From a virus (lineage: Duplodnaviria > Caudoviricetes): 51,073 bases of DNA. Below the pieces are notes generated by a model that saw only the letters and a program-made list of their open reading frames with translations, was not told where the DNA came from and did no database searches. A program made the translations under genes and the position numbers. Of this stretch, positions 540 to 50,433 are shown piece after piece (positions within the stretch are counted from its first letter, which is position 1; each line of letters starts with the position of its first letter). The stretch lies in IMG/VR virus record IMGVR_UViG_3300037293_000449, positions 1 through 51,073 of that record. One strand, 5' to 3'.

Positions 540-578
540 GCCCGAATGGCGAAACTGGTAGACGCATGGGACTTAAAA
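540..578 (+). pseudogene. 5' half of host tRNA-Leu(UAA), interrupted at the anticodon loop (attL)
   Basis: GCCCGAATGGCGAAACTGGTAGACGCATGGGACTTAAAA gives acceptor 5' strand, D arm and anticodon loop; the sequence after 578 (GCATTTGAG...) is not tRNA-like. Confidence 0.93.
570..578 (+). repeat. attL core GACTTAAAA
   Basis: Identical to 50377..50385; joining the two flanks at this repeat rebuilds an intact tRNA-Leu. Confidence 0.9.
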
Positions 579-707
579 GCATTTGAGTGTCAACACCCCT
601 CGCATCACCCCCTCATCTTCCGTATTACCTCCACCACCACGTAAACACTAGGCCTCGGCGCACCTTGCTGCCGAAACCATCAGCCTCCCCAAACCGACAT
701 TTTTTGT

Positions 708-841
708 CCTTGGTAGCTATTTGGGAGCTGTAGCTCAAAATCAGGCCAGCTTTCTCCATCGTTTGACTGCTTACCTAAGCGCTCGCCAAACTATTTTCAC
801 TTTTCTCAAAAATATTTTTAAGGCCGTTTGCGGCTCCCAAG
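708..841. promoter_or_regulatory. Putative integrase arm-type sites, left arm (TTGG[T/G]AGC)
   Basis: CCTTGGTAGCT 708..718, TTGGGAGCT 721..729 and inverted CGGCTCCCAAG 831..841; the same motifs occur at 50172..50203. Confidence 0.65.
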
Positions 842-868
842 CCACCGCTATGGCCTTTCCGTGGGCGA

Positions 869-898
869 TAAAAAACCCGGTCGCTGGGCCAGGTTTTT
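869..898. terminator. Bidirectional intrinsic terminator downstream of xis
   Basis: A-run, imperfect GC stem ACCCGGTC-GCTG-GGCCAGGT, then T-run. Confidence 0.55.
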
Positions 899-970
899 GG
901 GGAGTGCCAGGGCGTCGTGCCAAGGCCTCGACGAGCATCGTGCTCGCAGGTGTTTCAGGTAACGATGATC

Positions 971-1159
971 TTAGGCTGGGCAGTACATCGTCTGGGAAAA
1001 TCGCACCACATCTTCACGCTTGTAAAAGACTCGGCGAGTGAGGTGCTTATGAGCCGGGAGTTTATCCCTGAACTTTCCAGTGTAGCGCCAGAAACGCAGC
1101 GTCTCGGCAGACAAGCCCAGGATTTGCGCAGCTTCGCGGGGGTTCAGATATTCCGACAT
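971..1159 (-). CDS. xis: Excisionase / recombination directionality factor (MerR-like HTH)
   Basis: 62 aa, YLNPREAAQILGLSAETLRFWR...RVFYKREDV; lies next to attL. Confidence 0.8.
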   Translation of the reverse strand: MSEYLNPREAAQILGLSAETLRFWRYTGKFRDKLPAHKHLTRRVFYKREDVVRFSQTMYCPA

Positions 1160-1338
1160 TTATTTTTCCTTTTGTACGCGTTGAGTTTGCAAGCCAGGGT
1201 CTCTACCCCCGACTTGTCAATTCACGGTAATTGTTTGGAAAGTGGCCGTCAAGGCGCAGCAGCAGACTTTTCATAGTATGCTAACACCATACCTTTAATA
1301 TCTAACGATCTATTAAAAGCATACTGTTTCATGGACAT

Positions 1339-1415
1339 AAAAAAGCCCCGACAGGTATGAGAGAGACTGTCAGGGCTACATGATTGAAGGAAAAAGGAGG
1401 TAAACCCTCAACCAT
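1339..1415 (-). ncRNA. Putative ~77-nt two-hairpin antisense sRNA with anti-SD loop
   Basis: Extended -10 TG-T-TATAAT at 1429..1421 (-); 11-bp stem with loop UUUACCUCCUUUUU; 11-bp stem with loop UCUCUCUCAUAC followed by a U-tract. The second stem also serves as the primase terminator. Confidence 0.6.
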
Positions 1416-1474
1416 AACTAATTATAACATAGCAGATTATATAGTGTGTAGTTTTTACTCTTTTTGTTATCAAA

Positions 1475-2773
1475 TTATAGCGTATTTATGTGCAGGTCTC
1501 CGATTTCGTTTTGAGCCTTGAAGCCGTTAGTGCCAGGTTTGTGTTTGATGCGAGCCATCACAGTTGCGCCGCTAGCCTTAATTACATCCTGAAGTTCTTC
1601 CATAGGTGTCTTAGTGGCCTTCGCGATCTTCTGGATGGTTGAGTTGCTGATCTTGATTGCCATGTCGCTATTACCATCACCATAAAGTCTATGCCAGAAG
1701 TGCCGCCCGGCATGATCACCCGACATGACTTGAAGTTCCATTAGTACAGATGCGCCACCACTCTTTGTGGGTTTGCTGTTGAATGACTTGAACTTGATCA
1801 TTGCGTCGTGGGTTGGCATTGCTTCCGTCGATTCCGACTTTTTTACGACAATAGTGGTATCGACCTGCTTCTTGAACTTCCTGCGAATTGAGTTGATGTG
1901 GGACTTCGCGAAGATTTGGCATGAACGCCATGCAGCAGCATCTTGTGACTCGCCAGGTCGCGGCCTGTTTCGTGGGTATTGCATGTCGCGGAAGTACGGA
2001 TCGTCTGAGTGTTCAGTGTTGTCGACCTCGAATAACCTCCTGGCGATCTCCTCTTCTGTAGCTGAGGTGATCATTCCGCCGACAATTCGATTGAGTTCGT
2101 AAGAGCGTCCACGGGCTCCGGTATTGCCAGTTGCTTTGCGTGATGCTCCAGGCTTGTACATCATGCTGAGTCCGTAGCTCGACTGCTGAAGCTTCAGCTC
2201 AAGCACTTCGACAGGGTTGCCAGGGTTGTAAAAGCTGATTGCATGAGCAAGGCGATCAGGATGCGCGGTGTAGACGTAGTAGCACTGCGATGGAACCCTC
2301 CAGCAAGGGTCGATAGCGCGAAGGAGTCTGCCATCCAGAAAGTCGTCTAGGGTCTCAAGCATCGCTGCGCAGATCGAATTGTGCTCTTCGTGAAAGTAGG
2401 GTCGGTCAGGAGTGATTACCACACGGAACCTTGGCGCGCTTAGGGTGTGGCTGTGGCTCGTATAGAGGAAGTGCTCAAGACCCAAGTCAAGGAGCGCGTC
2501 CTCGATCTCTTCAAGCGCGATCATGTCGTCGTCATACCCCTCACCAAGTTTCTGGTCGATGTCGAAGATGATCAAAGAAGACGAGATCACATTGAGGTCA
2601 CTGCGCGCAGGGATGTTAAAACTGGCTGGTACGAACGTCATTGCATTCGTTTTCTCGGCCAAAACCTTTGGCTGTTCAAAGTGCTTTTCGAACAGCATTT
2701 TTAATGAGTCAGCTGACTTGTTCGAAACGTAGTTCGTTGAAGCAGTCGTCTGTGTTGCATATCTAATGGTCAT
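1475..2773 (-). CDS. AEP-superfamily primase fused to a C-terminal DUF669-like (SSB-like) domain
   Basis: IIFDID and YTSHSH...PRFRVV primase motifs; C-terminal KPTKSGG..LMELQVMSGDHAGRHFW...NEI resembles DUF669. Confidence 0.65.
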   Translation of the reverse strand: MTIRYATQTTASTNYVSNKSADSLKMLFEKHFEQPKVLAEKTNAMTFVPASFNIPARSDLNVISSSLIIFDIDQKLGEGYDDDMIALEEIEDALLDLGLEHFLYTSHSHTLSAPRFRVVITPDRPYFHEEHNSICAAMLETLDDFLDGRLLRAIDPCWRVPSQCYYVYTAHPDRLAHAISFYNPGNPVEVLELKLQQSSYGLSMMYKPGASRKATGNTGARGRSYELNRIVGGMITSATEEEIARRLFEVDNTEHSDDPYFRDMQYPRNRPRPGESQDAAAWRSCQIFAKSHINSIRRKFKKQVDTTIVVKKSESTEAMPTHDAMIKFKSFNSKPTKSGGASVLMELQVMSGDHAGRHFWHRLYGDGNSDMAIKISNSTIQKIAKATKTPMEELQDVIKASGATVMARIKHKPGTNGFKAQNEIGDLHINTL

Positions 2774-2821
2774 TTGCTCTTTCCTTTTCTTTTGAGGCTC
2801 TCTCTTGCCTCCATGTTCCCA

Positions 2822-2850
2822 GTATTAGAAATGAGCAAATGTTGTTGCAA
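2822..2850 (-). promoter_or_regulatory. Putative sigma70 promoter of the primase gene
   Basis: TTGCAA-17 nt-TAATAC(T) on the minus strand; spacer contains TTTGCTCATTT. Confidence 0.45.
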
Positions 2851-2982
2851 CTACTTTTTTATTTATTTGGGCTGGCGAGAGCTTAGGACGGCTATTGAGT
2901 GTGTGTCTAACGTGTTTCTGCGCTGAGCTCAGCTTCAAGGGGGTTCACAAAAAGTTTTTCTTAGTCATGCTTGGTTTTGAGT

Positions 2983-3043
2983 CACCCCACCTACCTATCG
3001 TCATTTCTTTCTTCTTCTATATAGAGAGCTAGTAGATGGGGTG
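2983..3043. other. Candidate replication origin A (palindrome around an AT-rich core)
   Basis: CACCCCACCTAC...GTAGATGGGGTG (11/12 inverted match) flanking an AT-rich spacer, between the divergent primase and origin-binding helicase genes. Confidence 0.45.
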
Positions 3044-3147
3044 GTGGAACAGTAAAAACACTTGGTTCAGAGAAACGCTTTTGACCTGTCCCTGTAAGAT
3101 GAATGTATACCTCATTTAATTATTTAGTCTATTTTCATCGTGGCATC

Positions 3148-3177
3148 TTGTATCAGTGTTTGCTCATTTTGGATACT
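3148..3177 (+). promoter_or_regulatory. Putative sigma70 promoter of the helicase gene
   Basis: TTGTAT-18 nt-GATACT; spacer contains TTTGCTCATTT. Confidence 0.45.
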
Positions 3178-3224
3178 GACTACATCAGGGGAATGAGAGA
3201 GCCCCTAAATAGAGGAAACACAAT

Positions 3225-5564
3225 ATGAATAATGCAATTTCTACACAATCAGTCATCATCGACAACAACAAAAATGCTTTGGAATCTGCTCTTGAACTTA
3301 GAGAGTACAAAAACACTACCCGCCTGATGTCTATCGATGGCGATGTACTGAACGCTGTCTCAGTAGCTTATAAAACAGCTTCTGGTCTCCACAGCGCCGA
3401 TGCTGGTCAAATCACTCGTTCGATCTACACGATGTCGAAAATCGCAATCGCCCTGATGATCGTGAAAGCTGACAGCAGCGACAAAGCTTTCGACGCAGCA
3501 GCCTTCGAAATCGCTCGTGATGTTTTCGTCTCCGGCAAAACCCAGGATAAGGCCCATGCTCTCGCTGAAGCAACTGGTCGCACCCAGGCTGCTTGCGAAT
3601 CAATGATCAATAGCAAGCTCGAATTCCTCACCAGCAGGATGAACTCAAAAACCAACGCGCTGACCGACACTGGCATCTCTACTGAGACCCCAGAAGCCAT
3701 TCGCGACATCATCCTGGCAGACGGTGGCAAATACCTGATCAGCCTGCCTACCGGCGAGGGCAAGTCGACCATCATCAACGAGCCAATCCTCAAGCAATAC
3801 ATTGCAGCAGGTAAGAAAGTCCTGGTCATCTCCCACAGGCGCTCAATCAACAAAGCCTTGGCTAACATCGACGGTATTGTGAGCTACGACGAGTGCGATC
3901 AACCTGAAGTCCTGCTCAACGCCAAGGGTCTGAAGATCGTCGTTAACTCGCTCAACTCACTCAAGTTCAAACGCTTCATCGCGAGTGTCGACCTGGTGGT
4001 TATCGACGAGGCATCCCAGGTGATCTCCCACGTCCTCGGCGGCGAAGTCAAAAATCGCCAAGCCGTATGGGAAACCCTTAATTTTGTCGTCAAAAACACC
4101 CCGAGCGTCATCATGTCTGACGCTGACATCGACGCACGCTGCGCTGAAATGATCGGGCCTGGCTACAAGCTGTTCAAGAAGCCTGCAGCTCACTCTGGAA
4201 TTACTGTGAAGACCGGTGACATCAACCATGTGCGTGCCCTGGCCGTCGCGTCAGCTTGCAAGACACCGACCCTGATCGCCTGTGACGCAGTGAAAGAAGC
4301 CCTGGCTCTCGCAAAGTCGATTGAAAAGCAAGGTGGGCCAGCAGCGCTCGTAATCACTGCTGACAATGCCTTGTGGCCGGAGCAAGCGGCGTTCATCGCA
4401 AACCCAAACGGCACGAATCACCAAGTCGTCATTTACAGCCCAGTGATCACGTCAGCGCTATCGATCACCTCTGGTCACTTCAAAGCTCACTACGGCGTTT
4501 TTCAGGGGCAGGTCGTGCCAAGTGACGCGATTCAGATGCTTCGTCGTGACCGCACCGCCAAGAGCTTCGTGGTGGGCATTAAGCAGTCGATGTACAGCAA
4601 GTCTGAGGCCGTCGAAGCGACGTACAAGTGCAGCCCGATTGCTCTCGATGATCTCGTTCCACATCTGAAAGCTGACACCTTCGTCCCGGTAGTTTTTATC
4701 CGCGACCCTGACAAATCAGATGAAGAAAATGATGCTGCGATCAATGAGGCTCAGGCTGATGCCAAGAAGGCGTTTGACGCAGCCCAGAGCGCCAAGCTTC
4801 AAAGATTGATCAGCGCTGAGGTTGCGTCCATCAACTTCCGCTTTGTTGAATACGGGCATCGCAAAAACGAGGCATGGCTGCGAGACAACATCCAGTCGGC
4901 ACTTCCAGCAAGCCTGCTCGCACGTGGCTTTGAGGTTGAAGTTCTTGAGCATGACGATGACCTATCTCTGGCCGGATTCAAAGCAGATAGTCAGTCCCGC
5001 AAGGCTGTTAAGCGTGAAGTAGCCAAAGGCCTCAACCACGCCGTCAAGGCTGACCCAGTGACTGCTCAGCGTGTTCAAGAGTTCGGCTCGGTAAATGAAC
5101 AGGAATACTTGGAGGCGTCTCGTGCAAGGGCGATTGAGGTGATGAAGGTATCGGACTTTGATCTGGATGACGCGATGATCTGGGGACATGGCGAAGGTGA
5201 ATCCAAAATCATCAAATTCCGCGAACTGATGAGCACCACTGAAGCCCTTGGTGCAACAGATGATCGCAGCTCGAAAAAGGTAATGTCTCTGCTGAAGCCC
5301 GCGCTTGAAACAATGTCTACCAGCAACGCCTGGTCTGGCATAGAAAGCGTTGCACTGTTCGACAGCCTCAACACCATTCGCACTGACGTGCTGACAGTAG
5401 GCATCAGGATTAGCTCTGCAAAAAGCGATCAAGCCAAGAAGGCGGACATAACGAAGATCTTCAGTCAGTTCGGACTTGTCGTCAAAAAGCACGAGACAAC
5501 GAACAAGCAGTTCTTCTACACCGTTAGCCCGAAATCACTGGCTCAAATGACACGATACATCTGA
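3225..5564 (+). CDS. SF2 helicase, replication origin-binding protein (UL9/CyRepA1-like)
   Basis: Walker A LPTGEGKST, ISHRRS, Walker B VIDEASQ, MSDAD, IYSPVITSALSI, QMLRRDR. Confidence 0.75.
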   Translation: MNNAISTQSVIIDNNKNALESALELREYKNTTRLMSIDGDVLNAVSVAYKTASGLHSADAGQITRSIYTMSKIAIALMIVKADSSDKAFDAAAFEIARDVFVSGKTQDKAHALAEATGRTQAACESMINSKLEFLTSRMNSKTNALTDTGISTETPEAIRDIILADGGKYLISLPTGEGKSTIINEPILKQYIAAGKKVLVISHRRSINKALANIDGIVSYDECDQPEVLLNAKGLKIVVNSLNSLKFKRFIASVDLVVIDEASQVISHVLGGEVKNRQAVWETLNFVVKNTPSVIMSDADIDARCAEMIGPGYKLFKKPAAHSGITVKTGDINHVRALAVASACKTPTLIACDAVKEALALAKSIEKQGGPAALVITADNALWPEQAAFIANPNGTNHQVVIYSPVITSALSITSGHFKAHYGVFQGQVVPSDAIQMLRRDRTAKSFVVGIKQSMYSKSEAVEATYKCSPIALDDLVPHLKADTFVPVVFIRDPDKSDEENDAAINEAQADAKKAFDAAQSAKLQRLISAEVASINFRFVEYGHRKNEAWLRDNIQSALPASLLARGFEVEVLEHDDDLSLAGFKADSQSRKAVKREVAKGLNHAVKADPVTAQRVQEFGSVNEQEYLEASRARAIEVMKVSDFDLDDAMIWGHGEGESKIIKFRELMSTTEALGATDDRSSKKVMSLLKPALETMSTSNAWSGIESVALFDSLNTIRTDVLTVGIRISSAKSDQAKKADITKIFSQFGLVVKKHETTNKQFFYTVSPKSLAQMTRYI

Positions 5565-5698
5565 TGTATCAAGCGCCAAGGAAGGCGCTGCAATATACCC
5601 AATATAAATATTTTGACAAACTTGCTAAGCGCTATTGAACGGCCAAATGCTCATATTTATTATGGAAGGTATAGCAAGAATAAAAAGGAAAAGGCTAT

Positions 5699-6358
5699 AT
5701 GACCGCTTTTATTGATATCTCGCAACATCAAATTGATATGGGGGAAGTTGACGAGGTAAGGGCTTGCCTGTTGAAACCATGGGGGTTTAGGGAGCTCGAC
5801 CGAGGTCTTTTATTTAGCATCGCCCAGACATGCCTGCATGCGCTCCACAAGGTGCCTTGGAATGATTACAACGCACAGCATTACAATGGACGTGTCGTGA
5901 CAGTCGAAGATGTAATTTTCCTTCCTGACCTTCCGCCAGTCCCGAAGCCTTATCGGAGTTGGCCCGAAGCATTCATTATGATTTTTGGCGGTCTGCAGGA
6001 GTGCGAATACGAGCCGAAGGAACAAAAGCTCAGGTACGTCGTTGAGCACACATACCAACCTGACTCTGTTGATCCGAACAACCCGAAGATCGTGTTCGAA
6101 ATCAAAGGTGTCATTCCTACATTGGTAGATGCAAAGAAGTACAGAGCTGTTGCGGAACAGAATGGCGTGCACATTATCTTCATCCTTCAAGAGAAAGGGA
6201 TTATCTGCCCCTGGTCAAGGCCTCGCAAAGATGGCACCAGGATGACCCAAGAGGAATGGATTTCAAAGGAGCGTTTTGAATACTGTTACCAAGGCGAAGA
6301 AGAGCTGTTCAGAGCAACCGACAAGTACAAGAAGCTCGTAGCAACATTCGGAAAGTAA
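5699..6358 (+). CDS. T7 endonuclease I-like PD-(D/E)xK nuclease / junction resolvase
   Basis: HTYQPD...FEIKG...DAKKY...IIFILQ...RKDGTRMTQEEW parallels the T7 gp3 motif order. Confidence 0.65.
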   Translation: MTAFIDISQHQIDMGEVDEVRACLLKPWGFRELDRGLLFSIAQTCLHALHKVPWNDYNAQHYNGRVVTVEDVIFLPDLPPVPKPYRSWPEAFIMIFGGLQECEYEPKEQKLRYVVEHTYQPDSVDPNNPKIVFEIKGVIPTLVDAKKYRAVAEQNGVHIIFILQEKGIICPWSRPRKDGTRMTQEEWISKERFEYCYQGEEELFRATDKYKKLVATFGK

Positions 6359-6390
6359 ACCTGCAACACCAAACATGACGTACAGAACAC

Positions 6391-6415
6391 AAGGGCCACG
6401 ATGGCTCTTTTTTTT
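6391..6415 (+). terminator. Intrinsic terminator
   Basis: AAGGGCCA-CGA-TGGCTCTT followed by a T-run. Confidence 0.7.
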
Positions 6416-6493
6416 GCTTAAATTTTGCGCACAAATAAAGCCTTTATATTAGTGTTACAATGTCTGCATAAGAATAATAATAAAGAGCACGAC

Positions 6494-6988
6494 ATGCGTA
6501 GAATTCTTGGGATTGATCCTGGCAAGAGCGGTGGCCTATCGGTAGTAGATGAGCAGTTTAACTTCATTGCCTGTATGCCTATGCCGGTTGCTTCCATCGA
6601 AAAAATCGAAAGAGTCGACCCTCGCCCTATTTTCGACTTTATAAAACTGCACAAGCCTGATTTAGCTATTGTCGAGCTTGTGGGTTCGAGGCCATGTGAG
6701 GGCGTGAAGTCCGTTTTCAGCTTTGGCGATTCTTACGGCGTCGTCCGCTCTTTGGCTGAAGCTCTCTGTGCAGACGTTCGCTATATCACACCTCAGAAGT
6801 GGAAGAGTTTTCAGGGCCTTATTGGGCTTTCAAAAGATCAAGTTGCAGAAATCGCTTATGAAGTCTTTCGCGTCGAAGATATTTACGGCAAACCCTATAA
6901 GCGTAAGGGCCAGATCAAGCGTAAGACCTGCGACGGGATCTCTGACAGCCTGATGATCGCTAAATACGGCGTCAGGTTTTTGGAGTGA
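6494..6988 (+). CDS. RuvC-like Holliday junction resolvase
   Basis: ILGIDPGKSGG, IVE, SFGDSYG, TPQKWK, DGISDSLMIA; ATG 6494 follows an A-rich leader. Confidence 0.85.
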   Translation: MRRILGIDPGKSGGLSVVDEQFNFIACMPMPVASIEKIERVDPRPIFDFIKLHKPDLAIVELVGSRPCEGVKSVFSFGDSYGVVRSLAEALCADVRYITPQKWKSFQGLIGLSKDQVAEIAYEVFRVEDIYGKPYKRKGQIKRKTCDGISDSLMIAKYGVRFLE

Positions 6989-6991
6989 CCA

Positions 6992-7498
6992 ATGGCGACT
7001 AAGGCGCTCACAAAAAAGATCATCAGTGATCTCGAAAAGTACATCACCCAGACGACCAGCCTGAAGATCGCCTGCGGCTGTGCCGGTGTGCCCTCGTCGA
7101 CGTTTTACGTATGGCAGAAGGCCGCGAAAGAGATCGAGGAAGAAGGCAAAGACGAGTCTGACTTAACCAAAGGGGAAGCTCTCCTGTTGGAATTTTTGGA
7201 GCGCATTGATCTGGCGAAAGCCAAGTCGTGCAAACCAGCTATCGATGCGGTCATGAAAGCGATCAAGGACGGCGATGCAAACCAAGCTGCCAGGTTGCTC
7301 AGCAGACGAATGCCAGAAGAATTTGGCGACTGGAACAGGAAAGAAGTAACGATCCGTCAGGAAGTCACCGAAGAATCCAGCACCGGCATCGCCCTGATCC
7401 CCTCCATGTCCGGCGACAACGACCTAGATCAGCTACTCCAGCAACAGCAATCCGACGCTCATTTGCTCGCAAAAACTAAAACAAGCGAGCTCAGCTAA
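6992..7498 (+). CDS. Probable terminase small subunit
   Basis: N-terminal HTH (ACGCAGVPSSTFYVW), helical body, located upstream of TerL. Confidence 0.65.
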   Translation: MATKALTKKIISDLEKYITQTTSLKIACGCAGVPSSTFYVWQKAAKEIEEEGKDESDLTKGEALLLEFLERIDLAKAKSCKPAIDAVMKAIKDGDANQAARLLSRRMPEEFGDWNRKEVTIRQEVTEESSTGIALIPSMSGDNDLDQLLQQQQSDAHLLAKTKTSELS

Positions 7499-8061
7499 TG
7501 ATCAGTCAACGCACTCCATTTGACTGCGGCATCGCCACGCTAGCCAACGCGCTGGGCATCACCTACGAGCAGTCGCTAGACCTCTATGGCACGGACAAAC
7601 AGCACAACGGCGTAACCATCCAGCAAACCGCATCGATCCTATTCAGCCTTGGCTATGCACCCGTGTATACCGCGCTCCCAGGATTCGTCAAAGCCAGCGG
7701 CATCGAGATGAGCACAGCAAATCCGGACATCCTGGAGAGCTTTGGCCACCCAGCAATCCTGCAAGTCCTAACCCCCTCTGGAGTCGTTCACCAGGTCTTC
7801 TTTGACGGCAAAAACATCCTCGATCCAAGTCCCTCAGTCGACGGCCTTCGAAGCGTCAGCGAGTACGAGTGTGTCGACGCGGTGATCCTCTACAAGCGCT
7901 TCCACACGGGCGGTGTGATCTCCAGCAAGCCAGGAGATGCCATTCCCCAGATCATCAGCACTGACTATCCAGAGCCGCGTAAACGGTTTGTGTTCAAAAA
8001 CAACCAGGCGCTTGTGCGCAAACAGGCTGTTCTGTGTGCGGTACGGGAAGGTGCTTTGTGA
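7498..8061 (+). CDS. C39-like cysteine peptidase
   Basis: Q-x4-DCG (QRTPFDCGIATLA), later HQVFFDG and ILDP motifs of the C39/papain-like fold. Confidence 0.6.
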   Translation: MISQRTPFDCGIATLANALGITYEQSLDLYGTDKQHNGVTIQQTASILFSLGYAPVYTALPGFVKASGIEMSTANPDILESFGHPAILQVLTPSGVVHQVFFDGKNILDPSPSVDGLRSVSEYECVDAVILYKRFHTGGVISSKPGDAIPQIISTDYPEPRKRFVFKNNQALVRKQAVLCAVREGAL

Positions 8062-8098
8062 TCCGTATACGGGGCATTAAGGCCGGAAAGGTGCGCTT

Positions 8099-9634: not shown

Positions 9635-9703
9635 TCTCAGAAGTTTGCCGTCAAACAAAGTACAACAGTTGTAGCCAAATAATAATAAGAATAGGCGCTA
9701 TAT

Positions 9704-11020: not shown

Positions 11021-11037
11021 CGCCTCCTGATTAGTCT

Positions 11038-11616: not shown

Positions 11617-11681
11617 CCTCATTTGTTGCGCTAGATTTTCCAGTTCGTATACTGCTTCTATCCATTATCAAAGGTAATCAC

Positions 11682-12047: not shown

Positions 12048-12067
12048 GATCGGTTTGAGTACAAACT

Positions 12068-12088
12068 AGGGCCCTGCGGGGCCCTTTT
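12068..12088 (+). terminator. Intrinsic terminator after the mvaT-like gene
   Basis: AGGGCCC-TGCG-GGGCCCT-TTT. Confidence 0.75.
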
Positions 12089-12102
12089 CGTAATCAAGGA
12101 AT

Positions 12103-12594: not shown

Positions 12595-12695
12595 ATCGTC
12601 TGGGTGCAAGTGGCCCGAGTGGTCAGTTCTCAAAGGCGGTTGGGCGCCAGCAACTACTGCCTATTTAACAGCAATTGCGAACAGAGAGTAGTGAT

Positions 12696-14237: not shown

Positions 14238-14242
14238 GATCG

Positions 14243-39729: not shown

Positions 39730-39762
39730 CAACATACCCCTAAGAATAATAAGAAGGTAAGC

Positions 39763-42129: not shown

Positions 42130-42131
42130 GG

Positions 42132-42791: not shown

Positions 42792-43119
42792 GTTCTAACT
42801 CCTCAGCTTCACGCTTATAAAATGGGGGCTCAACATTAAGCAGTGCAGCGCCAAGGAGGAATACTCCAACATTTTCCCAAATCATCTCACCCAGGAAGGG
42901 TAGTAATGTGCTGGAGCCAGGTAGGATCGTTGCCATTATCGCAATTGGATATCCGAGTAAGTCCATAACTAGAGATGGGGCGTGATAGCAGTGCAGCAAA
43001 TTGCGTGCAGAAATTACTGTCTCGCTGAATGTTTGAAGCTCAGTCGCAGACGCGAGTAGAAAACCTGGCGCGACGACGCTAAACATAAATATTGCCCACA
43101 CCACTCGATAGATACGCAT
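42778..43119 (-). CDS. Small membrane protein
   Basis: About three hydrophobic segments; AGGGAG RBS. Confidence 0.6.
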   Translation of the reverse strand: MRIYRVVWAIFMFSVVAPGFLLASATELQTFSETVISARNLLHCYHAPSLVMDLLGYPIAIMATILPGSSTLLPFLGEMIWENVGVFLLGAALLNVEPPFYKREAEELEHAAA

Positions 43120-43187
43120 ACAACTCCCTTGCTCTTTAAGTTTGCATCAATGCTACGTGCAGGCAACTAGCGTGAAAAGCGTTTTTA

Positions 43188-44168
43188 CTACGCAGTTACA
43201 TACCCAATTGTGGTTTTTCTAATAACGCCCAAACCCTCTGCGTTCCTGAAAATCTCACCAGCTCGGAGGTTCCCGATTCTGGCGTTTTTCGCAAAAACCT
43301 TGAGCCGAACGGGGGTGCCGGGTTCCAGAGTTTTTGCGTGAACAACCAGGGTTTTCAGGATTTCTGCGTTCGAGTCGAGCAGGGTTTCTGGGTTTTTCAC
43401 GGTTTCTGGCGTTTCTGTCACTCCCTCTGGCATGCCAGTCACCTTAACTTCAGATGATGGCGTTTCGCTAGCCGCTGAGGCTACAACACCCGTGCTAGAG
43501 CGTCCAGAGCTTCTGACGCCAGCTAGGATGAGTGCCGGAACTATCTCCAGGGACATTGCGAAGCCGAGGCACAGAAACTGGGCGAGAAGCGGTGGCAGGT
43601 TGGATGCCTTGGCGACGCCGGACTTGATATGAGCGATCTCAAGAGACCAGGCGTTAATGCGTCCAATCGCCTGAGCGCGCTGAGCTGCTGCACGAGTGCT
43701 GACAGACTCTTCGAGTTCCAAGGCTTTGGAAACCATGCCACGACTACGCAAGTCATTAGCCTGCGTCCCCGCATCGGAGATCTCTTTATCAAGATGGGAG
43801 ATTAACGCTGAGTCTTTCTGAGCCATTGCAGTAAGTGCGGCTACACGCTCAGTAGTCATCACTTCATGAGTGGCCTTGCTGACGCTAATCGAAGTCATGA
43901 GTCGATCATAAGTGGCCCAACCGCTAACACCCGAAAGCATCAGGGCGCATGCAATTGTCAGTACCGCACTTGTGCCACGCAAAACCCGGATAGCAACAGG
44001 CCACGCCAGATACTTGAAGATATCCAAGAGCACGGCTGCAGACGCAAACAAGAGCGCAAGATTCTTGTCCTCAATAAGTGCATACATAGCCAAGGCAACA
44101 GAAATTGCAGTTACGCTAGACAAAAGGAATGCGATTGCGACAAGTAATGCCGACAGCTTTTTGCTCAT
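43188..44168 (-). CDS. Multi-TM coiled-coil protein with putative C-terminal winged helix
   Basis: Three N-terminal TMs, coiled coil, fourth TM, linker, ARIGNLRAGEIF...GVI. Confidence 0.65.
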   Translation of the reverse strand: MSKKLSALLVAIAFLLSSVTAISVALAMYALIEDKNLALLFASAAVLLDIFKYLAWPVAIRVLRGTSAVLTIACALMLSGVSGWATYDRLMTSISVSKATHEVMTTERVAALTAMAQKDSALISHLDKEISDAGTQANDLRSRGMVSKALELEESVSTRAAAQRAQAIGRINAWSLEIAHIKSGVAKASNLPPLLAQFLCLGFAMSLEIVPALILAGVRSSGRSSTGVVASAASETPSSEVKVTGMPEGVTETPETVKNPETLLDSNAEILKTLVVHAKTLEPGTPVRLKVFAKNARIGNLRAGEIFRNAEGLGVIRKTTIGYVTA

Positions 44169-44343
44169 CTTGAGCTCCGAAATCTCTGTATAAGTCCATT
44201 ATATAAGGGGTTCCAGGCAGTGCAATAGCATGGGCGGGCTATTTGACATCAAACTACCTTCATATAGATTGCATTTATTTATTGAGTGGGCGAGTCCAAT
44301 TCAATATGATGTTTATAAATGAGCCATAAAAAGGAAAATAATA

Positions 44344-44790
44344 ATGGACATCAAGATTTCAGTTAATCACCAGGCTATCGCTGACGCACTTATTAAAAGT
44401 GGCGACTTGCATCGTGAAGATTGCGGATGCGGACTTTCATATGAGCATGATGAAGCACAGGAACTTCAGGAAGTTATTGATATTGCGCTGGATGTAATCG
44501 AAATTTACGGCGAAGCCGGGCTAAGGGCGCTGGCAAATAGAGCCGAAAGACGTGCGGATGAACTGGATGTAGAAGTTCGAGCGAAGCTGGCTAAGGCGGA
44601 AGCCGAGAAAGCCCTGGGTGAAGTAATCCTGTCGGAGTTCGACCAGATCGCTCTGATGAACATTGTGGGCATCATCGGCGGTGACATGGACGCCTATGAC
44701 CTTGCCACGACACTCGTCCGCAGGAAGGTCTACAGCGCTGCTGAGATGATGCGACTATCCGGTGCGCAGTTGAGACATTTACTCTCGTAA
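44344..44790 (+). CDS. Hypothetical protein
   Basis: 148 aa; AAAAAGGAAAA RBS. Confidence 0.65.
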   Translation: MDIKISVNHQAIADALIKSGDLHREDCGCGLSYEHDEAQELQEVIDIALDVIEIYGEAGLRALANRAERRADELDVEVRAKLAKAEAEKALGEVILSEFDQIALMNIVGIIGGDMDAYDLATTLVRRKVYSAAEMMRLSGAQLRHLLS

Positions 44791-45204
44791 AAACGACTCA
44801 GCAAGCAATTGGGCTAGGGGCGCAGGCTTTTGGCCTTTTTCGAAGGACGTCACCAGAAAGGTTTTGCCGCAACGGTCATGGAGCACCATTCCTTCCCTGA
44901 CCAATCTCGCTTCGACGTGGAGCTCTGCGAATAGCCCGAACGCAGTCGTGTCGCCGTCAACCTGCCCATAAATCCACCCGGCTTCGTCTGCCACGACTTC
45001 ACTGAGAACGTGGTCTGACGGGCTGAAAGCTCTCTTTATCATCCTACCCACCCGTCGCGCTCCCTTAGCCGCCATAACGAAAAACCAGATCAGGGGAATA
45101 AGCGGAATCGAGATCAGGATTCCACCCCACACGTTGATCTGATGCACAACCCAACGCAAAAGGCCCCAAAGCCCGCGCATGGGCACGATCCAGTTGATTC
45201 TCAT
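44779..45204 (-). CDS. Hypothetical membrane protein
   Basis: Hydrophobic segment GGILISIPLIPLIWFFVMAA; coupled to the upstream gene. Confidence 0.55.
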   Translation of the reverse strand: MRINWIVPMRGLWGLLRWVVHQINVWGGILISIPLIPLIWFFVMAAKGARRVGRMIKRAFSPSDHVLSEVVADEAGWIYGQVDGDTTAFGLFAELHVEARLVREGMVLHDRCGKTFLVTSFEKGQKPAPLAQLLAESFLRE

Positions 45205-45503
45205 GACCCGACCTCCACACTTGTTGGCTTCTCATGCAGGAAGGTCAGCGCAAGCAGAGCGTGTATAGAATCAAGCAGCGCATCAGCCTTATCGTCAAAG
45301 CTCAGAATCATGTACTCGTGCCCCTGGACGTCTTTGACGCCAATACCCATGTCATCAATCCAAGCACTGTGTATGTGGAAGGTCTGATGTAACTCACCGT
45401 CAAATTCCTTCCCCTCAATAACTCCATATGTAAGCCCGGCAACATCAATGGCATTACCCTTATGCAAAACATATGCTTCATAAATCAATGCGCAACGAGC
45501 CAT
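45201..45503 (-). CDS. Hypothetical protein
   Basis: 100 aa; GGAGG RBS. Confidence 0.6.
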   Translation of the reverse strand: MARCALIYEAYVLHKGNAIDVAGLTYGVIEGKEFDGELHQTFHIHSAWIDDMGIGVKDVQGHEYMILSFDDKADALLDSIHALLALTFLHEKPTSVEVGS

Positions 45504-45596
45504 TTAACCTCCATTACATATATGCCGATTGTACCGCTTGCAAGGTTTGCCAGCAAACACTAATATCGGGATTGTAGAATTAAGGAGTTGCATGTC

Positions 45597-46256
45597 ATGA
45601 AAAGTTTCAGAAGCATATTAAATGCACAACATGTAGCTCAGTTGTATCTTGAAAATAAGTCGATTAACGGCATGAGTAAGAGAGCTGGGGTGTCAGATGA
45701 ATTGACAAGGTTTGCATTCACTCTGGCACTCCGTGGCGTACATCCGAATAGCCTTGACTCTATTTTTGACTTCAGACTTGAAGACGTTGTCGGTCTCCTG
45801 CTCGCTGATAAAGAGACCACGCAGGATATGAAGGATGAATTCGATGAGTTCAGGGTTGTTTGGCGCAGGCTGCATTGCCGTGAGCGTGATCGGCGGGACG
45901 CGATTTGGCGACTGGAAGCGATAAAGCCAGGTTCAAAAACAGCTGAGCCATTTCTCGAATCTCTTGATGCAATAGCTGAGGCGGACGAGGTAGATCCGAT
46001 TGGGGAGGCCTTTGCTATGGGGATCGACGAGGTCTTCGAGATAGTCCCCGTCACGTCGGTGCCAGGCTGGATAGACTACATCGCGTGCGACGACATTCCA
46101 GAGCCGTGGTGCGAGCGCTTCTCACAAGCTAGCACTGGATCGACGGCTACGATCCGTGGGAGCTATGCGTACGACTGGGAAAAGTTTGTGCGGTGCTGGA
46201 AGGTCGAGATGGATATGATAGCTAAACACCAGTTGGCACTTGGGGAGTCGCTATGA
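45597..46256 (+). CDS. Hypothetical protein
   Basis: AAGGAG RBS; coupled to the exonuclease gene. Confidence 0.6.
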   Translation: MKSFRSILNAQHVAQLYLENKSINGMSKRAGVSDELTRFAFTLALRGVHPNSLDSIFDFRLEDVVGLLLADKETTQDMKDEFDEFRVVWRRLHCRERDRRDAIWRLEAIKPGSKTAEPFLESLDAIAEADEVDPIGEAFAMGIDEVFEIVPVTSVPGWIDYIACDDIPEPWCERFSQASTGSTATIRGSYAYDWEKFVRCWKVEMDMIAKHQLALGESL

Positions 46257-46717
46257 AAATTGTTGTGGACTGCGAATTCACACAGCTCAATGCTACCTCC
46301 AAACTTATTTCCATGGCGCTAGTTGCGGAAGACGGCCAAGAGCTCTACTTCGAGCTTAGCGATAATTACGTGATTGGCGATTGCAGTGATTTTGTTGTTG
46401 AGAAGGTATTACCACAGCTGTCAGGAGGTAGCGACTCAATATCACTGATTGCTGCAAGGCAGGAATTGTTGGCGTTCTTGGCTCGCTTCGATAATGTCGA
46501 AATCATGTCTGACGCGCCCGCATGGGACTGGGAGTTCTTCTGCGATATCGCTTACCACAACGGAAAGTGGCCAGGCAATGCATCCAACAAGCCGCTTAAC
46601 TTGATTGACATGTTTAATAATAAAAATATGCAAGGGGAAGATGCGCCGGAGCTTCCACATCATGCGTTGCTCGACGCTAGATTACTAATGAACTACTACA
46701 AGCGTCTTCTCAAATAG
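46253..46717 (+). CDS. DEDD 3'-5' exoribonuclease (Rv2179c-like)
   Basis: VVDCEFT..LISMALV, SDAPAWDW, HHALLDAR. Confidence 0.8.
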   Translation: MKIVVDCEFTQLNATSKLISMALVAEDGQELYFELSDNYVIGDCSDFVVEKVLPQLSGGSDSISLIAARQELLAFLARFDNVEIMSDAPAWDWEFFCDIAYHNGKWPGNASNKPLNLIDMFNNKNMQGEDAPELPHHALLDARLLMNYYKRLLK

Positions 46718-47864
46718 CTAGCTCTAGTTCGTCGGGAATATTTAATTGCTGTCCAGGTACATACTCAATGTACTTTCGCTTGAGCCTGCACTCCTGAGGC
46801 TTGAATAGCGCGTCAAATATAGCATCGATGAGTTCCAGAATTTCCTTGATCATCTTTTGAACTTCGTAATCCCTTGCTGTGAACTTGATGTAGATTGGCT
46901 TTCTTCTGCGCCCGTTAACTGCGATGAACTCATAGTAGTGGATTCTAATTCTTTCTTGGTCTTCGCTATCTCTTCTTGCAATTTCATCCTGAAGTTGATG
47001 AATGGTTTCTGGATCATAGTGCATTCCTTCTTGTGTAGTTAGTTTATGCCACGTAAGTCTTGAGCGTTTGAGTTGTCTTCCGCTGATGTGTTTGCCGTCA
47101 AACTCGAAGCTGATGCCTTTCGGTTGGCCTTCATCATTGAGCGTCAGTTTGATGTAGACCTTCTGCTTTCTCAGGGCCCTGACGAAGTCGAACATGTCTC
47201 CTTGGATTGCGTTGGTGGCTTCGATAGCGCCTGCAATCTTTGCGATCATCTTGTGCTTGAGCGGGAGGTCACCATCTCTGATCGATGCCTGGAGTTCTGC
47301 GTGAGAGATCGAAACGCCCCAAGTATCCTTAGGCTTTGGGGCTTTGCTCAGGTTGAAGCGATCTTCGATGCCGGACACTGACTCAAGGCTGATCGAGCGT
47401 TCGTTGCTGTCCTTGACCATCGAGAAGTCGTCATTGAGCCGGATGCGATTTGCGACGATGTGGACGTGTTGATGATCCTTGTCCTGGTGCATTACAGCGA
47501 CGTACTGAGTCGTTTCGTCGAAGCCTAGGTCTGTCATGTACTTCGTGACGGCCTGGCGCCACTGTGAGGTTGTTAGAGACTCACCTGGGCGCAAGGACAG
47601 CATGGCGTGGAAGACCGGTTTAATGGCCTTCTCAGAGTCGATGGCGAAGCGCCTGAGCGTCTCAACCTGGTCGAATTCGCGGATCATCTCCGAAAGGTCT
47701 GACTCGTTGCCCTGCAGGACGCCTGGCAGTGGGTCTTTGCTCATAGTGTTGAAGCTGATCGTCCGGATTCCGCTGATCTCATGGTCGTGCTTGGTACAGC
47801 CGAAGATGTAGCGAATGCGGTTCTTAAACGAGCCTGCAGATTTAGGAAAGATCTTTCCAATCAT
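46710..47864 (-). CDS. HUH relaxase (MobA/VirD2, MOBP-like)
   Basis: Motif I GSFKNRIRY, motif II VFHAMLSLRPGE, motif III HQDKDHQHVHIVANRI; intact ORF. Confidence 0.93.
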   Translation of the reverse strand: MIGKIFPKSAGSFKNRIRYIFGCTKHDHEISGIRTISFNTMSKDPLPGVLQGNESDLSEMIREFDQVETLRRFAIDSEKAIKPVFHAMLSLRPGESLTTSQWRQAVTKYMTDLGFDETTQYVAVMHQDKDHQHVHIVANRIRLNDDFSMVKDSNERSISLESVSGIEDRFNLSKAPKPKDTWGVSISHAELQASIRDGDLPLKHKMIAKIAGAIEATNAIQGDMFDFVRALRKQKVYIKLTLNDEGQPKGISFEFDGKHISGRQLKRSRLTWHKLTTQEGMHYDPETIHQLQDEIARRDSEDQERIRIHYYEFIAVNGRRRKPIYIKFTARDYEVQKMIKEILELIDAIFDALFKPQECRLKRKYIEYVPGQQLNIPDELELAI

Positions 47865-48154
47865 TTCACACCTCCAAGATTCACTTGGGCGATGTACTTC
47901 ACCTTCTCAAGCAGTTCGCTTCCTGGGCGATCCGCATTGATCATTGATGCAAGGTTCATCAACTCCCTGGCGATCTGTACGACATCCTGAGTGACTTTTG
48001 GCTTCACCTGCCCATTGGCAACGTAGTCACGGATAAACGCTCCAGCTGACTTGTAGCCTGCCTCAGTCATCTTGGCATTAAGAGTGTCTAACTCCGTTTT
48101 GTTTAGTCGTAGGGTGATGCGGGACTCTTTGGTTTGTCTCTCTATAGTTTTCAT
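47861..48154 (-). CDS. mobC: Relaxosome accessory protein (RHH)
   Basis: ITLRLNKTELDTL....AG....GAFIRD, RELMNLASMIN; ATGA overlap with the relaxase. Confidence 0.85.
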   Translation of the reverse strand: MKTIERQTKESRITLRLNKTELDTLNAKMTEAGYKSAGAFIRDYVANGQVKPKVTQDVVQIARELMNLASMINADRPGSELLEKVKYIAQVNLGGVK

Positions 48155-48189
48155 CTTGACCCACCTTTATTATTCTAGTTATCGAGCCT

Positions 48190-48260
48190 TTTAACGCAAC
48201 ACCCGAAGGGATGTGAGTATCTAGCCTTACTTGTCTGACATAGACACAGCTGGCTAAAAA
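48190..48260. other. Candidate oriT
   Basis: Upstream of mobC; short inverted repeats (CCC-GAA-GGG; TGTCT-GACAT-AGACA 48232..48246) and GTATCTAGCC, loosely like the MOBP nic motif TATCCTG/C. Confidence 0.4.
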
Positions 48261-48344
48261 GTAGCTCTAGACTCATTATGCAAATGGAGCTTTAGGTGGG
48301 TCTAGTGTGTTTGTAAGTCTTTTTGATTTATTTGTTTGTATACC

Positions 48345-48483
48345 GAAACTTTCGCAAGGTGTGAATGCGAAAACGCAGCAAGGGAGTGCGAAATCGCAAA
48401 CAAGGAAAGCGAATTCGCTCTCATGTACTGCGACAATCACAAGGCGTGACTGTGGTTTCGCAATAACATAGTGCGAATTCGCA
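48345..48483. repeat. Seven 12-bp TGCG-N4-CGCA palindromic units at ~21-bp period
   Basis: Units start at 48345, 48366, 48387, 48408, 48429, 48451, 48472; an AT-rich tract precedes them. Confidence 0.85.
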
Positions 48484-48511
48484 AATGGATGGTGTAAACC
48501 GGAATTAATAG

Positions 48512-49891
48512 TTACAGGCTAACTTCTTTGGTATCGAGCATCTTGGTATCGAGGTCAGCCAAGGTGGAAAGTAGACCTCGGCACACAAAATCTTTTTCGA
48601 GGCCAGCACTGTTCAGAATCTCGGTTTCAATCTTCGTAGCAGCATCACGGATCTCTGAGAGATATGCCATTTTGTAGCCATCTGTCACGTCCACAGTCTG
48701 TCCAGCCGAATCATGGTTGCAGAGCACCTTGATGTAAAACGCACCAACACCGGCCCGCTCAGCGACTGACATGAAGCTGGCCCGCATGATTTTGCGTGGA
48801 AGATGCTGATTGATCCTGTCAGAAATCCTGCAGAGGAAGTCCCGGACATTCGACTCACTGACCTTATCCTGCTGCACTCCTGGGAAAACGTAGTCACCTG
48901 AAGAGTGCTTCATCGAGTACATCAGCTGGCAGTAAGCAGCATCGCTCAGAACAAGATGAAACTCCTTCCCATTTTTCAGGGTGTCTTCTTCATTTGTCTT
49001 GTTGCGTTCTGGAAAAACCACTGCGCGAGTTTTATGGCAAATATAGCTTCGCCGGATCTTATTGATCTCTCCAGGCCTAACTCCTGTGAAGAGCATAAAC
49101 AAAATCGCTGCCGAGACCGGCTTGAACGATGTAGGTACATCACGAAGCGGAGGGGTCTCGGAGATTTCTACACACCCCTTAATGAACTGACCCAGATCCT
49201 TTGGGTTGATCCGAATCTTATCGCGCTTGGTGGTATGCCATTGCTTGGTGTGTTTCATGATATCGACAGGGTTGTACTTGTAAATCGGCTCACCGATCTC
49301 GTTCTTATACCAGACAATCGAAAACGAAAAGATACCCCGAAGCAGGCACAAGGCTTTATTAGCAGATCGCTCCCTTGGTGGTGTAACTCGTCCATTCGGT
49401 CTGACAGCAGGGACGGTAGTCTCGTCATGGAGGTTCACAACGTCATCACTGGTAAAGCTTGAGATGGCCCTTGGGCCGTACTTCGCCTTGATGTAGTTGT
49501 TATAAGTTCGGTTGTAGTCATCGACTGTAGTCTTGGTCAGCTTCTTGCTTTTACGGCGCATGAAGTTTTCGAATGCCATGTCCAAGGTGAGGCTGTCCCG
49601 GAGAGACTTCGTTTCTTCAGCCTGCAGGATCTCATCAAGGTTCGCGTAGATCTTCTCTGCTTGCGCTCTAATCAATGGCAGTTTGGTAGTTTTGGGATTA
49701 AAAGCCTCAAGCTTGCGGCGGTGATCTTTTCCCAATACCTTCCTGACAACATAGAAGGCCTTGCCCCCAGCCTTAGTTACACGTAATACCAAGCCTTTAG
49801 TTTCAGTGTCATAAGCGAGCATATCAGCCTTACCTTCAGGGCAAACGAGTGCCTCCAGGGAAGCTTTGGTGAAGTGAATTTTCAAAGCCAC
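48512..49891 (-). CDS. int: Tyrosine integrase with N-terminal arm-binding domain
   Basis: YDTETKGLVLRV...GGKAF arm domain; LFTGVRPGEI, KNG, RKIMRASF, LCNH, VTDGY catalytic motifs. Confidence 0.95.
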   Translation of the reverse strand: MALKIHFTKASLEALVCPEGKADMLAYDTETKGLVLRVTKAGGKAFYVVRKVLGKDHRRKLEAFNPKTTKLPLIRAQAEKIYANLDEILQAEETKSLRDSLTLDMAFENFMRRKSKKLTKTTVDDYNRTYNNYIKAKYGPRAISSFTSDDVVNLHDETTVPAVRPNGRVTPPRERSANKALCLLRGIFSFSIVWYKNEIGEPIYKYNPVDIMKHTKQWHTTKRDKIRINPKDLGQFIKGCVEISETPPLRDVPTSFKPVSAAILFMLFTGVRPGEINKIRRSYICHKTRAVVFPERNKTNEEDTLKNGKEFHLVLSDAAYCQLMYSMKHSSGDYVFPGVQQDKVSESNVRDFLCRISDRINQHLPRKIMRASFMSVAERAGVGAFYIKVLCNHDSAGQTVDVTDGYKMAYLSEIRDAATKIETEILNSAGLEKDFVCRGLLSTLADLDTKMLDTKEVSL

Positions 49892-49917
49892 GGGGAATCC
49901 TTACGAGTCTTAACGTG

Positions 49918-49946
49918 TTGATTTGATCTGTGTTTTCGTGTCTAAT
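49918..49946 (+). promoter_or_regulatory. Putative promoter of the element-encoded tRNA
   Basis: TTGATT-17 nt-TCTAAT followed by a GC-rich discriminator CCACCGCC. Confidence 0.55.
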
Positions 49947-49964
49947 CCACCGCCTGCTTGCACC

Positions 49965-50049
49965 GCCTCGATGGTGAAATTGGTAGACACATCGCACTTA
50001 AAATGCGCCGCCGAAAGGTGTACCGGTTCGACTCCGGTTCGAGGCACCA
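49965..50049 (+). tRNA. Element-encoded tRNA-Leu(UAA), complete, 85 nt
   Basis: Acceptor GCCTCGA/TCGAGGC, D arm with GG, CGCA-CTTAAAA-TGCG, long variable arm CGCC-GAAA-GGTG, ACCGG-TTCGACT-CCGGT, discriminator A plus CCA. Confidence 0.95.
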
Positions 50050-50171
50050 TCTCTCCTGCAATACCCATCCCACCTCGCTGCACCCACCAGAACGTCATTT
50101 GCGTCTAAAGATCTCGGGACAAAATCCATCCATCATCTGTACGTTTCATGATCAATTCCTAGGTTGGTGAG

Positions 50172-50203
50172 CCTTGGTAGCTCTTGGGAGCCGCTTGGTA
50201 GCT
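50172..50203. promoter_or_regulatory. Putative integrase arm-type sites, right arm
   Basis: Tandem CCTTGGTAGCT / CTTGGGAGCCG / CTTGGTAGCT at 11-bp period. Confidence 0.7.
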
Positions 50204-50376
50204 GCCACTGAAAGCCGCTCACATCTGCCAGCATCTCTCCTCAGCGCTCACCATCTCTCGGCGACCTGGCAAAGATCACTCTAAACGCCTGATATGCCTA
50301 GTTTTTAAGCCCAAAAACACGTTCAAAAGCTTTCCTAAGCTCTCGACTGCTTTCCGCTGCCGATTTAGGGCAGAAT

Positions 50377-50433
50377 GACTTAAAATCCCCCGCCTGTAAG
50401 GGCGTCCCGGTTCGATTCCGGGTTCGGGCACCA
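50377..50433 (+). pseudogene. 3' half of host tRNA-Leu(UAA) (attR)
   Basis: GACTTAAAATCCCC...GGTTCGATTCC...TTCGGGCACCA; its 3' end pairs with GCCCGAA at 540; upstream sequence supplies no 5' half. Confidence 0.93.

Follow-up and report, generated by a model that had tools for sequence, protein, structure and literature searches.

When a prophage interrupts a host transfer RNA (tRNA) gene that is rebuilt at neither end of the insertion, the question arises of which tRNA the lysogen then lives on. This question was raised by the window analysed here, a stretch of 51,073 nucleotides forming positions 1 to 51,073 of the IMG/VR tailed-virus record IMGVR_UViG_3300037293_000449. An integrated tailed prophage of 49,798 bp (579..50376), with a guanine plus cytosine (G+C) content of about 50%, was found in this window, where it divides a host tRNA-Leu(UAA) gene in two. 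The element carries a tRNA-Leu(UAA) gene of its own beside its integrase gene, and its sequence features make it probable that this is a case of tRNA-dependent lysogeny in a temperate, siphovirus-like Pseudomonas phage.

The 5' half of the host gene (540..578, plus strand) comprised the 5' strand of the acceptor stem, the D arm, and the 5' strand and loop of the anticodon arm; it ended in the core of the left attachment site (attL) and was continuous with an intact tRNA in the genus genome G029. The 3' half (50377..50433, plus strand) comprised the loop, the 3' strand of the anticodon stem, the variable arm, the T arm, the 3' strand of the acceptor stem and CCA. A strong terminator-like hairpin of the host gene was located by the terminator scan at 50442..50473 (plus strand). 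The tRNA that was cut is of type II, and the sole block common to both halves was the 9-bp core GACTTAAAA, present on the plus strand at attL (570..578) and at the right attachment site, attR (50377..50385). On the element side, attL continued as GCATTTGAGTGTCAAC and attR was preceded by GGGCAGAAT; neither of these is tRNA-like, and the host gene is therefore rebuilt at neither junction. ARAGORN and Rfam (at the gathering score) recognised one tRNA in the whole window, at 49965..50049, and thus no rebuilt tRNA at the junctions.

In-silico excision, in which 1..578 was joined to 50386 and onwards, gave an 87-nt tRNA-Leu(taa) with a regular cloverleaf. A natural empty site was present in G029, where the counterparts of 8..578 (74% identical) and 50377..50451 (97% identical) met on one intact tRNA-Leu(taa) gene with an overlap of exactly the 9-bp core. 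The flanking halves, the excision and this empty site all placed the bacterial attachment site (attB) in the host tRNA gene. Integrases that target tRNA genes with a crossover in the anticodon loop were reportedly described by Williams in 2002 (NAR 30:866). As with the classical tRNA integrases, the crossover would lie in the 7-nt anticodon loop, with the symmetric stem arms as its flanks. A classical phage attachment site (attP) carries a 3' or 5' part of the tRNA, usually the 3' part, and so rebuilds the gene at one junction, whereas the attP of this phage does not. A short core (about 8-17 bp) without a rebuilt tRNA was found here, at 9 bp, and likewise, at 9-16 bp, in six other lysogens. 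The original prediction had described a split at the anticodon loop with 9 bp in common and no rebuilding at the junctions; this observation was confirmed as real, and the core of its interpretation is sound.

The element-borne tRNA-Leu(UAA) gene (49965..50049, plus strand) is 85 nt long, with the anticodon arm TCGCA-CTTAAAA-TGCGC, discriminator A and an encoded CCA. It lies 73 bp from the integrase gene, on the opposite strand, and about 330 bp from the core. The gene scored 54.6 bits against RF00005 (gathering score 29), with CUUAAAA aligned as the anticodon loop and hence UAA as the anticodon, so that the complete tRNA predicted opposite the integrase was borne out. Its isotype and anticodon are those of the disrupted gene and are kept in relatives. 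The stems had also been predicted to differ from the host copy by compensatory changes, and comparison of sequences and folds found paired changes only, with three acceptor pairs, one D pair, two anticodon pairs and one T pair changed on both sides. The variable arm is shorter than that of the host copy. The anticodon stem retains the T-C mismatch at its top, and neither the D loop nor the discriminator A was changed.

The adjoining gene (48512..49891, minus strand; 459 amino acids, GTG start) encodes a tyrosine integrase, with matches to PF00589 (28.6 bits; cut-off 27.1) and phrog_1 (E 1e-31). Arm-type-like repeats were observed on both sides of the would-be attP. The P arm (50174..50203, plus strand) contained TTGGTAGCT at 50174 and 50195 and TTGGGAGC at 50184, and the P' arm (710..728, plus strand) contained TTGGTAGCT at 710 and TTGGGAGC at 721, with an inverted TTGGGAGC at 833..840. 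These three copies of the nonamer TTGGTAGCT were the only ones in the 51-kb window, and each stood beside TTGGGAGC and within about 200 bp of the cores. In a four-element alignment, 31 of the 40 columns of 50171..50210 were invariant. The element has the look of a complete temperate tailed phage, and its attP is of the lambda type.

The same organisation was found in relatives of the element. Relatives of the integrase were present in two viral records (100% and 99% identical) and in a third (71%) whose contig ended at the integrase gene, as well as in the named genomes of Pseudomonas sp. ANT_J12 (78%) and GM50 (75%). Matches were obtained in 4 of 401 genus genomes, namely ANT_J12, GM50, G295 (70%) and G264 (56%). 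An attL consisting of host 5' half, core and element was seen in the window and in G003, G004, G001, G002, G264 and G295. In six of these seven elements an 85-nt tRNA-Leu(UAA) gene beside the integrase gene was accompanied by an attR of element, core and host 3' half; the contig of the seventh, G004, ended at the integrase gene. Wherever enough DNA was available, the tRNA gene lay beside and opposite to the integrase gene, with the core and host 3' half 330-375 bp further on. Most elements had a core of 9 bp; that of G295 was 11 bp long and that of G264 was 16 bp long.

Comparison of four elements with integrases 75-100% identical showed the tRNA to be invariant at all 85 columns. In the alignment of the four, the spacer upstream of the tRNA (49892..49964) was invariant at 58 of 73 columns, and the 121 bp downstream at 45 of 121. 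The hosts of the family carried three tRNA-Leu alleles, with the stems TGGGA, AGGGA and CCGGA. A 100%-identical integrase was present in two hosts with different alleles (the window's and G003), which implies recent independent integrations. The source collection estimates the G003 record to be 95% complete. In the phage collection no relative of the integrase-tRNA region was found, all 75 matching records matching the tRNA only, and a distant relative of the integrase (L079, 39% identical) had no tRNA within 2.5 kb. The cores of the G264 element (G264:C1:2681316-2785983) were separated by 104.6 kb, in which the only other core was that of the element tRNA, and in G002 (contigs C100 and C104) attL was on another contig despite 65 kb of contig ahead of attR. 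These two elements may be much larger than that of the window, or composite.

The number of tRNA-Leu(UAA) genes in the host was assessed with a pattern of the Leu(UAA) D arm and anticodon loop run on 151 genus genomes. The pattern was matched in 129 of these and twice in only four; it was not exhaustive, as no match was found in the other 22. Two of the four genomes with double matches were the lysogens G001 and G002, in which the second match was the orphan 5' half. The trailing letter of the pattern misses the orphan 5' half of G295, and the lysogens and the seven genomes with an element-type anticodon arm (see below) were therefore searched without it. G002, G264 and G295 then gave exactly two matches apiece, one to the element tRNA and one to the orphan 5' half of the host gene. 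These counts suggest that tRNA-Leu(UAA) is single-copy in most Pseudomonas genomes.

Full censuses were made of two related lysogens, and in both the element tRNA was the only Leu(UAA). G001 gave 65 RF00005 matches, of which 12 were of at least 80 nt and all were typed: Leu with anticodons tag, caa, cag (two genes) and gag, four Ser, one Tyr, an odd 88-nt gene and the element tRNA. The odd gene (L022; G001:C4:254368-254554, minus strand) is a type II tRNA-like gene with the loop CTAATAA, called Ile(aat), without encoded CCA and with an RF00005 score of 37.6 bits. G264, a single contig of 6.03 Mb, gave 73 matches, of which 11 were of at least 80 nt and all were typed; its only Leu(taa) was that of the element. 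UUA is read only by the anticodon UAA in these bacteria, and TTA was present in 29 of 52 sampled host open reading frames; the lysogens therefore most likely live on the element's tRNA. The dependence of the lysogen that had been predicted is thus indirectly supported by the censuses of G001 and G264 and by the pattern in G002 and G295, while the copy number in the window's own host lies outside these counts.

The mechanism that we propose begins with an attP whose core GACTTAAAA has the arm-type repeats TTGGTAGCT and TTGGGAGC on both sides, and an attB located in the host tRNA-Leu(UAA) gene, within its anticodon loop, both of which are seen in the sequence. As this attP holds no copy of the tRNA 3' half, the host gene remains split while the prophage stays in place. 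UUA decoding would be supplied by the phage tRNA beside the integrase gene, on which the lysogen would therefore depend. Precise excision would restore the host gene, and a deletion that takes out the phage's tRNA without restoration of attB should be lethal. It would follow, as originally predicted, that imprecise deletion is penalised, because the lysogen depends on the element tRNA.

Several points weigh against this interpretation. The copy-number counts concern related lysogens, and a second chromosomal Leu(UAA) gene is possible in the window's host. In each RF00005 census, scores were given to 150 of the 173 first-look candidates, which leaves 23 per genome unscored, and the exclusive reading of UUA by the anticodon UAA enters the argument as a premise. 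Second Leu(UAA) copies do occur in the genus, G136 having one in an array of 11 tRNA genes. G001, G002 and G295 are draft assemblies in which attL and attR are on separate contigs. The element tRNA was labelled tRNA-Phe(aaa) by ARAGORN, because the anticodon arm was shifted in the ARAGORN fold; six other tRNAs with an identical anticodon arm were called Leu(taa) by the same program. Upstream of the element tRNA, no site satisfied the criteria of the promoter scan. The gene had been credited with its own promoter, and this claim was not sustained; a possible promoter, TTGATT-17 nt-TCTAAT (49918..49946, plus strand), was read by eye in the largely invariant upstream spacer and is absent from the scan.

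The second tRNA-Leu(taa) in the G136 array (L052; G136:C1:63622-79649) has an imperfect anticodon stem, TGGGA/TCCTC. Automatic annotation of the phage family would hide the Leu(UAA) identity of its tRNA, as ARAGORN gives Phe(aaa) and Rfam gives UAA. The promoter scan likewise found nothing at the element's left end, and no terminator-like site was found on the plus strand from the element tRNA to the host flank except the hairpin at 50442..50473.

It had also been suggested that the recoded stem stops the integrase from attacking the element's own tRNA. The 7-nt anticodon loop is the usual overlap region of anticodon-loop integrases, and the loop CTTAAAA, the likely 7-bp crossover region, was identical in attB, attP and the element tRNA. 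The attP flanks AATGA/GCATT already differ from the attB flanks TGGGA/TCCCC. In one relative, G264, the element tRNA reads GACTTAAAATC, which is the first 11 bp of the 16-bp core of that element; GACTTAAAA is retained in the element's own tRNA there, a point against immunity conferred by the recoded stem. The idea is thus weakened, rather than refuted. A further suggestion, that the element controls UUA decoding for its AT-rich genes, was not supported by codon usage, as TTA was not enriched in the element (70 of 14,394 codons, or 4.9 per 1000) relative to three 16-kb host samples (2.2-5.4 per 1000).

An element-type anticodon arm (TCGCA/TGCGC) was found in the only Leu(UAA) gene of seven of the 151 genus genomes. 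In one of them, G104, the chromosomal tRNA was identical to the phage tRNA at 85 of 85 positions, with homology extending about 60 bp upstream and about 35 bp downstream. The possibility that the seven genomes are decayed lysogens was considered and rejected, except possibly for G116. No match to a window protein was found within about 8 kb on either side of the seven tRNA genes, apart from an integrase remnant in G116, and no orphan host halves were found in these genomes. Their loci have flank synteny in common with loci of the native type. In a tree of a shared 1.5-kb flank, a single well-supported split set four of the seven apart from three genomes that carry other alleles; L036, L037 and L040 were left out of this tree because they are without the 1.5-kb stretch. 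Given the lack of phage genes and orphan halves, the synteny and the flank tree, the TCGCA allele was read as native; it is likely native to a clade of Pseudomonas and the source of the phage copy. The identity in G104 points to capture of the tRNA from such a host, or to common descent.

The remnant in G116 (L036:7599-8069; G116:C1) covers residues 1-105 of the integrase, is 33-47% identical and is frameshifted. It lies 73 bp upstream of the element-type tRNA-Leu(UAA) gene, on the opposite strand, with the spacing seen in the phage. In other respects the locus is native: genes for DoxX and alginate lyase follow downstream, and an OprB fragment lies upstream. The remnant could be a relic of an element, or the birthplace of the integrase-tRNA module. 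Element-borne alleles may become the only tRNA-Leu(UAA) of a lineage, and G116 may be an example. At another of these loci, in G105, a 44-nt partial copy of tRNA-Cys (L040:10243-10286) was found about 0.9 kb from the intact tRNA-Cys gene, which suggests that another element integrated at tRNA-Cys in this genome.

The same tRNA gene was found to be split by an element of a different kind. In G125, tRNA-Leu(UAA) was split by a 62.5-kb insertion with an 11-bp core, and a P4-type integrase with an arm-binding domain abutted attR. No ordinary Leu(taa) was present among the 54 tRNA matches in this genome. It was considered as a case of a split tRNA-Leu without replacement, and this was rejected when an intron-bearing replacement was found by an E-value Rfam scan. 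A group I intron match lay about 190 bp inside attL (RF00028, 38.9 bits, which is below the gathering score of 50; E about 1e-7). When introns were allowed, ARAGORN called a tRNA-Leu(taa) of 85 nt that is interrupted between U34 and A35 by an intron of 231 nt (L103:2171-2486; G125:C37, about 134771-135086, minus strand). The intron-bearing gene was also found at L105, L106, L107 and L108, so that the intron was present in 5 of 401 genus genomes (G125, G245, G393, G192 and G023), at 81-100% identity and 229-233 nt, with RF00028 scores of 35.8-38.9 bits, all below the gathering score. A split host 5' half lay about 200 bp upstream in four of the five genomes.

The G125 element encodes conjugation proteins (VirB4/TrbE-like, coupling protein, DUF3363, ParB-like) and has no detectable protein in common with the phage in the window. 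A second, unrelated family would thus appear to follow the same split-and-replace strategy, with a predicted group I intron in its tRNA. A group I intron is present in the tRNA-Leu(UAA) genes of cyanobacteria and plastids, and as in that case the intron in G125 lies in the anticodon loop of tRNA-Leu(UAA), between U34 and A35. It differs in its location in a Pseudomonas conjugative element, where it belongs to the replacement for a split host tRNA, and in an RF00028 score below gathering. A literature search, with supplements and subscription journals outside its coverage, found no report of a group I intron in tRNA-Leu of Pseudomonas. The intron also interrupts the att-like sequence in the element's own tRNA gene. 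A broader idea, which we hold tentatively and regard as rather doubtful, is that the anticodon loop of the single-copy tRNA-Leu(UAA) gene is a general target in Pseudomonas for split-and-replace by unrelated elements (phage in 4 of 401 genomes, conjugative elements in 5 of 401), whose replacement tRNAs are shaped against their own integrases, in the phage through re-paired stems.

At the left ends of the elements, TGTCAA occurs about 10 nt past the core (588-593 in the window; also L023, L062, L080 and L103), with GTCAAC in G264. This motif is common to the phage family and the unrelated conjugative-element family and may be a shared core-type binding feature. A further sequence, GGTAGACGGCCGGGACTTAAAACAATTC in G126 (L088; G126:C2, about 3045105, minus strand), resembles the D and anticodon arms of Leu(UAA) and is followed by foreign sequence; no tRNA was detected at this locus by ARAGORN and no intron by Rfam with E up to 0.01.

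Other explanations of the arrangement in the window were weighed against dependence on the phage tRNA. If the host had another functional tRNA-Leu(UAA), the split would do no harm, and the tRNA of the element would be an ordinary phage tRNA that can be dispensed with. The two Leu(taa) genes of G136 are in keeping with this, as are the 22 genomes without a pattern match and the position of the window's host outside the counts. We nevertheless consider it improbable, as double matches were confined to 4 of 151 genomes, two of them lysogens with an orphan 5' half, the censuses of G001 and G264 found no host Leu(taa), and the tRNA was present in every family member seen to its right end and invariant in four. 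The phage tRNA might instead serve mainly in lytic growth, through codon supply or by acting against anticodon nucleases of the host as a decoy or substitute; complementation of the split gene would then be a secondary effect or a chance outcome of attP decay. A tRNA-Leu is carried by many phages, those of T4-like phages being 78-79% identical, and an anti-defence role is raised in the discussion of PMC10865867. A mainly lytic role is nonetheless unlikely, given that TTA is no commoner in the element than in the host samples, that the only tRNA of the element has exactly the anticodon of the destroyed gene, and that the pairing of split and replacement recurs in an unrelated conjugative element, which has no lytic cycle.

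The element could also be a trapped, decaying prophage whose attP has lost the tRNA 3' half, a dead end rather than a working strategy. The integrase remnant beside an element-type tRNA in G116 would fit such a history. The recent independent integrations implied by the identical integrases of the window and G003 speak against it, as do the open and complete structural, packaging and replication genes, the near-complete G003 record and the conserved arm-type repeats, and this explanation is very improbable indeed. Dependence of the lysogen on the phage tRNA accordingly remains the preferred reading.

The remaining gene content of the prophage was that of a tailed phage, and its G+C content was below that of the short flanks (about 56%) and of related host loci (57-60%). 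Among the proteins identified were a Holliday junction resolvase and replication proteins of the primase/helicase type, together with small and large terminase, portal, scaffold, major head, tape measure and tail proteins. The right end encodes RNase H, a MobA/VirD2-like relaxase, a NikA-like protein and the tyrosine integrase. The relaxase gene (46710..47864, minus strand; PF03432, 83.1 bits) adjoins the integrase gene across the family, and the gene of the NikA-like small DNA-binding protein (47861..48154, minus strand; PF21983, 34.2 bits) lies between the two. Both genes stay beside the integrase gene across the family, with relaxases 39-94% identical, and mobilisation, replication and excision control are possible roles for them in a tailed prophage.

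The original prediction made no link to a known phenomenon, and the arrangement has in fact already been described as tRNA-dependent lysogeny (PMC10865867). As defined in that article, this involves a tyrosine integrase, an attB in a tRNA gene and a core of 8-17 bp; the tRNA is not rebuilt, and the phage brings a tRNA with the same anticodon, on which lysogen survival depends. Experiments with mycobacteriophages showed that such phage tRNAs are required for the survival of lysogens (Guerrero-Bustamante & Hatfull 2024, PMC10865867). The cases described are Fionnbharth (K4), Cluster L, Cain (K6), Gaia (X) and the Gordonia CQ2/DL phages; the frequency beyond these phages is left open there, and the Lactobacillus johnsonii prophage Lj965 is cited. 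The phage in the window resembles the actinobacteriophages of that article in its tyrosine integrase, in the arm-type sites flanking attP, and in an attB in a host tRNA gene with a core of similar length (8-17 bp there, 9 bp here) and no rebuilding at attL or attR. The likely origin of its tRNA also parallels the mycobacterial case, in which the phage tRNA has its closest relatives in other species belonging to the genus of the host.

The phage in the window differs in its host, a Pseudomonas of the Gammaproteobacteria, and in its target, tRNA-Leu(UAA) rather than the Lys-TTT, Ile2-CAT and Leu-CAA given in that article. Unlike in the actinobacteriophages, the tRNA gene lies directly beside the integrase gene, on the opposite strand and about 330 bp from the core, NikA-like and relaxase genes are part of the same module, and the case is known from sequence alone. 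In Sinorhizobium meliloti, Lo5R7ANS-like prophages interrupt tRNA-Leu(UAG) and bring a tRNA-Leu(UAG) of their own (PMC11476347). These prophages and, reportedly, Lj965, which are bioinformatic cases only, share with the present phage the interruption of a tRNA in mid-gene and a tRNA of the same anticodon resembling alleles of other taxa, and differ from it in host class, anticodon and phage type. The literature search, with the coverage stated above, found no case of tRNA-dependent lysogeny in Pseudomonas.

The phenomenon being already described, the value of the present case lies in the new host group, the conservation at the level of a family and the conjugative-element finding. tRNA-dependent lysogeny, experimentally shown only in actinobacteriophages, would be extended to Pseudomonas phages and to a tRNA-Leu(UAA) target, and the conjugative-element finding suggests that the split-and-replace strategy is not limited to phages. 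The phage offers a testable case in a tractable genus, in which the phage tRNA should be a lysogeny gene, and the cassette of integrase, attP and tRNA could serve as an integration vector. For the biology of the host, this would mean that a prophage can hold an essential host function, so that its partial deletion is penalised and foreign tRNA alleles are spread.

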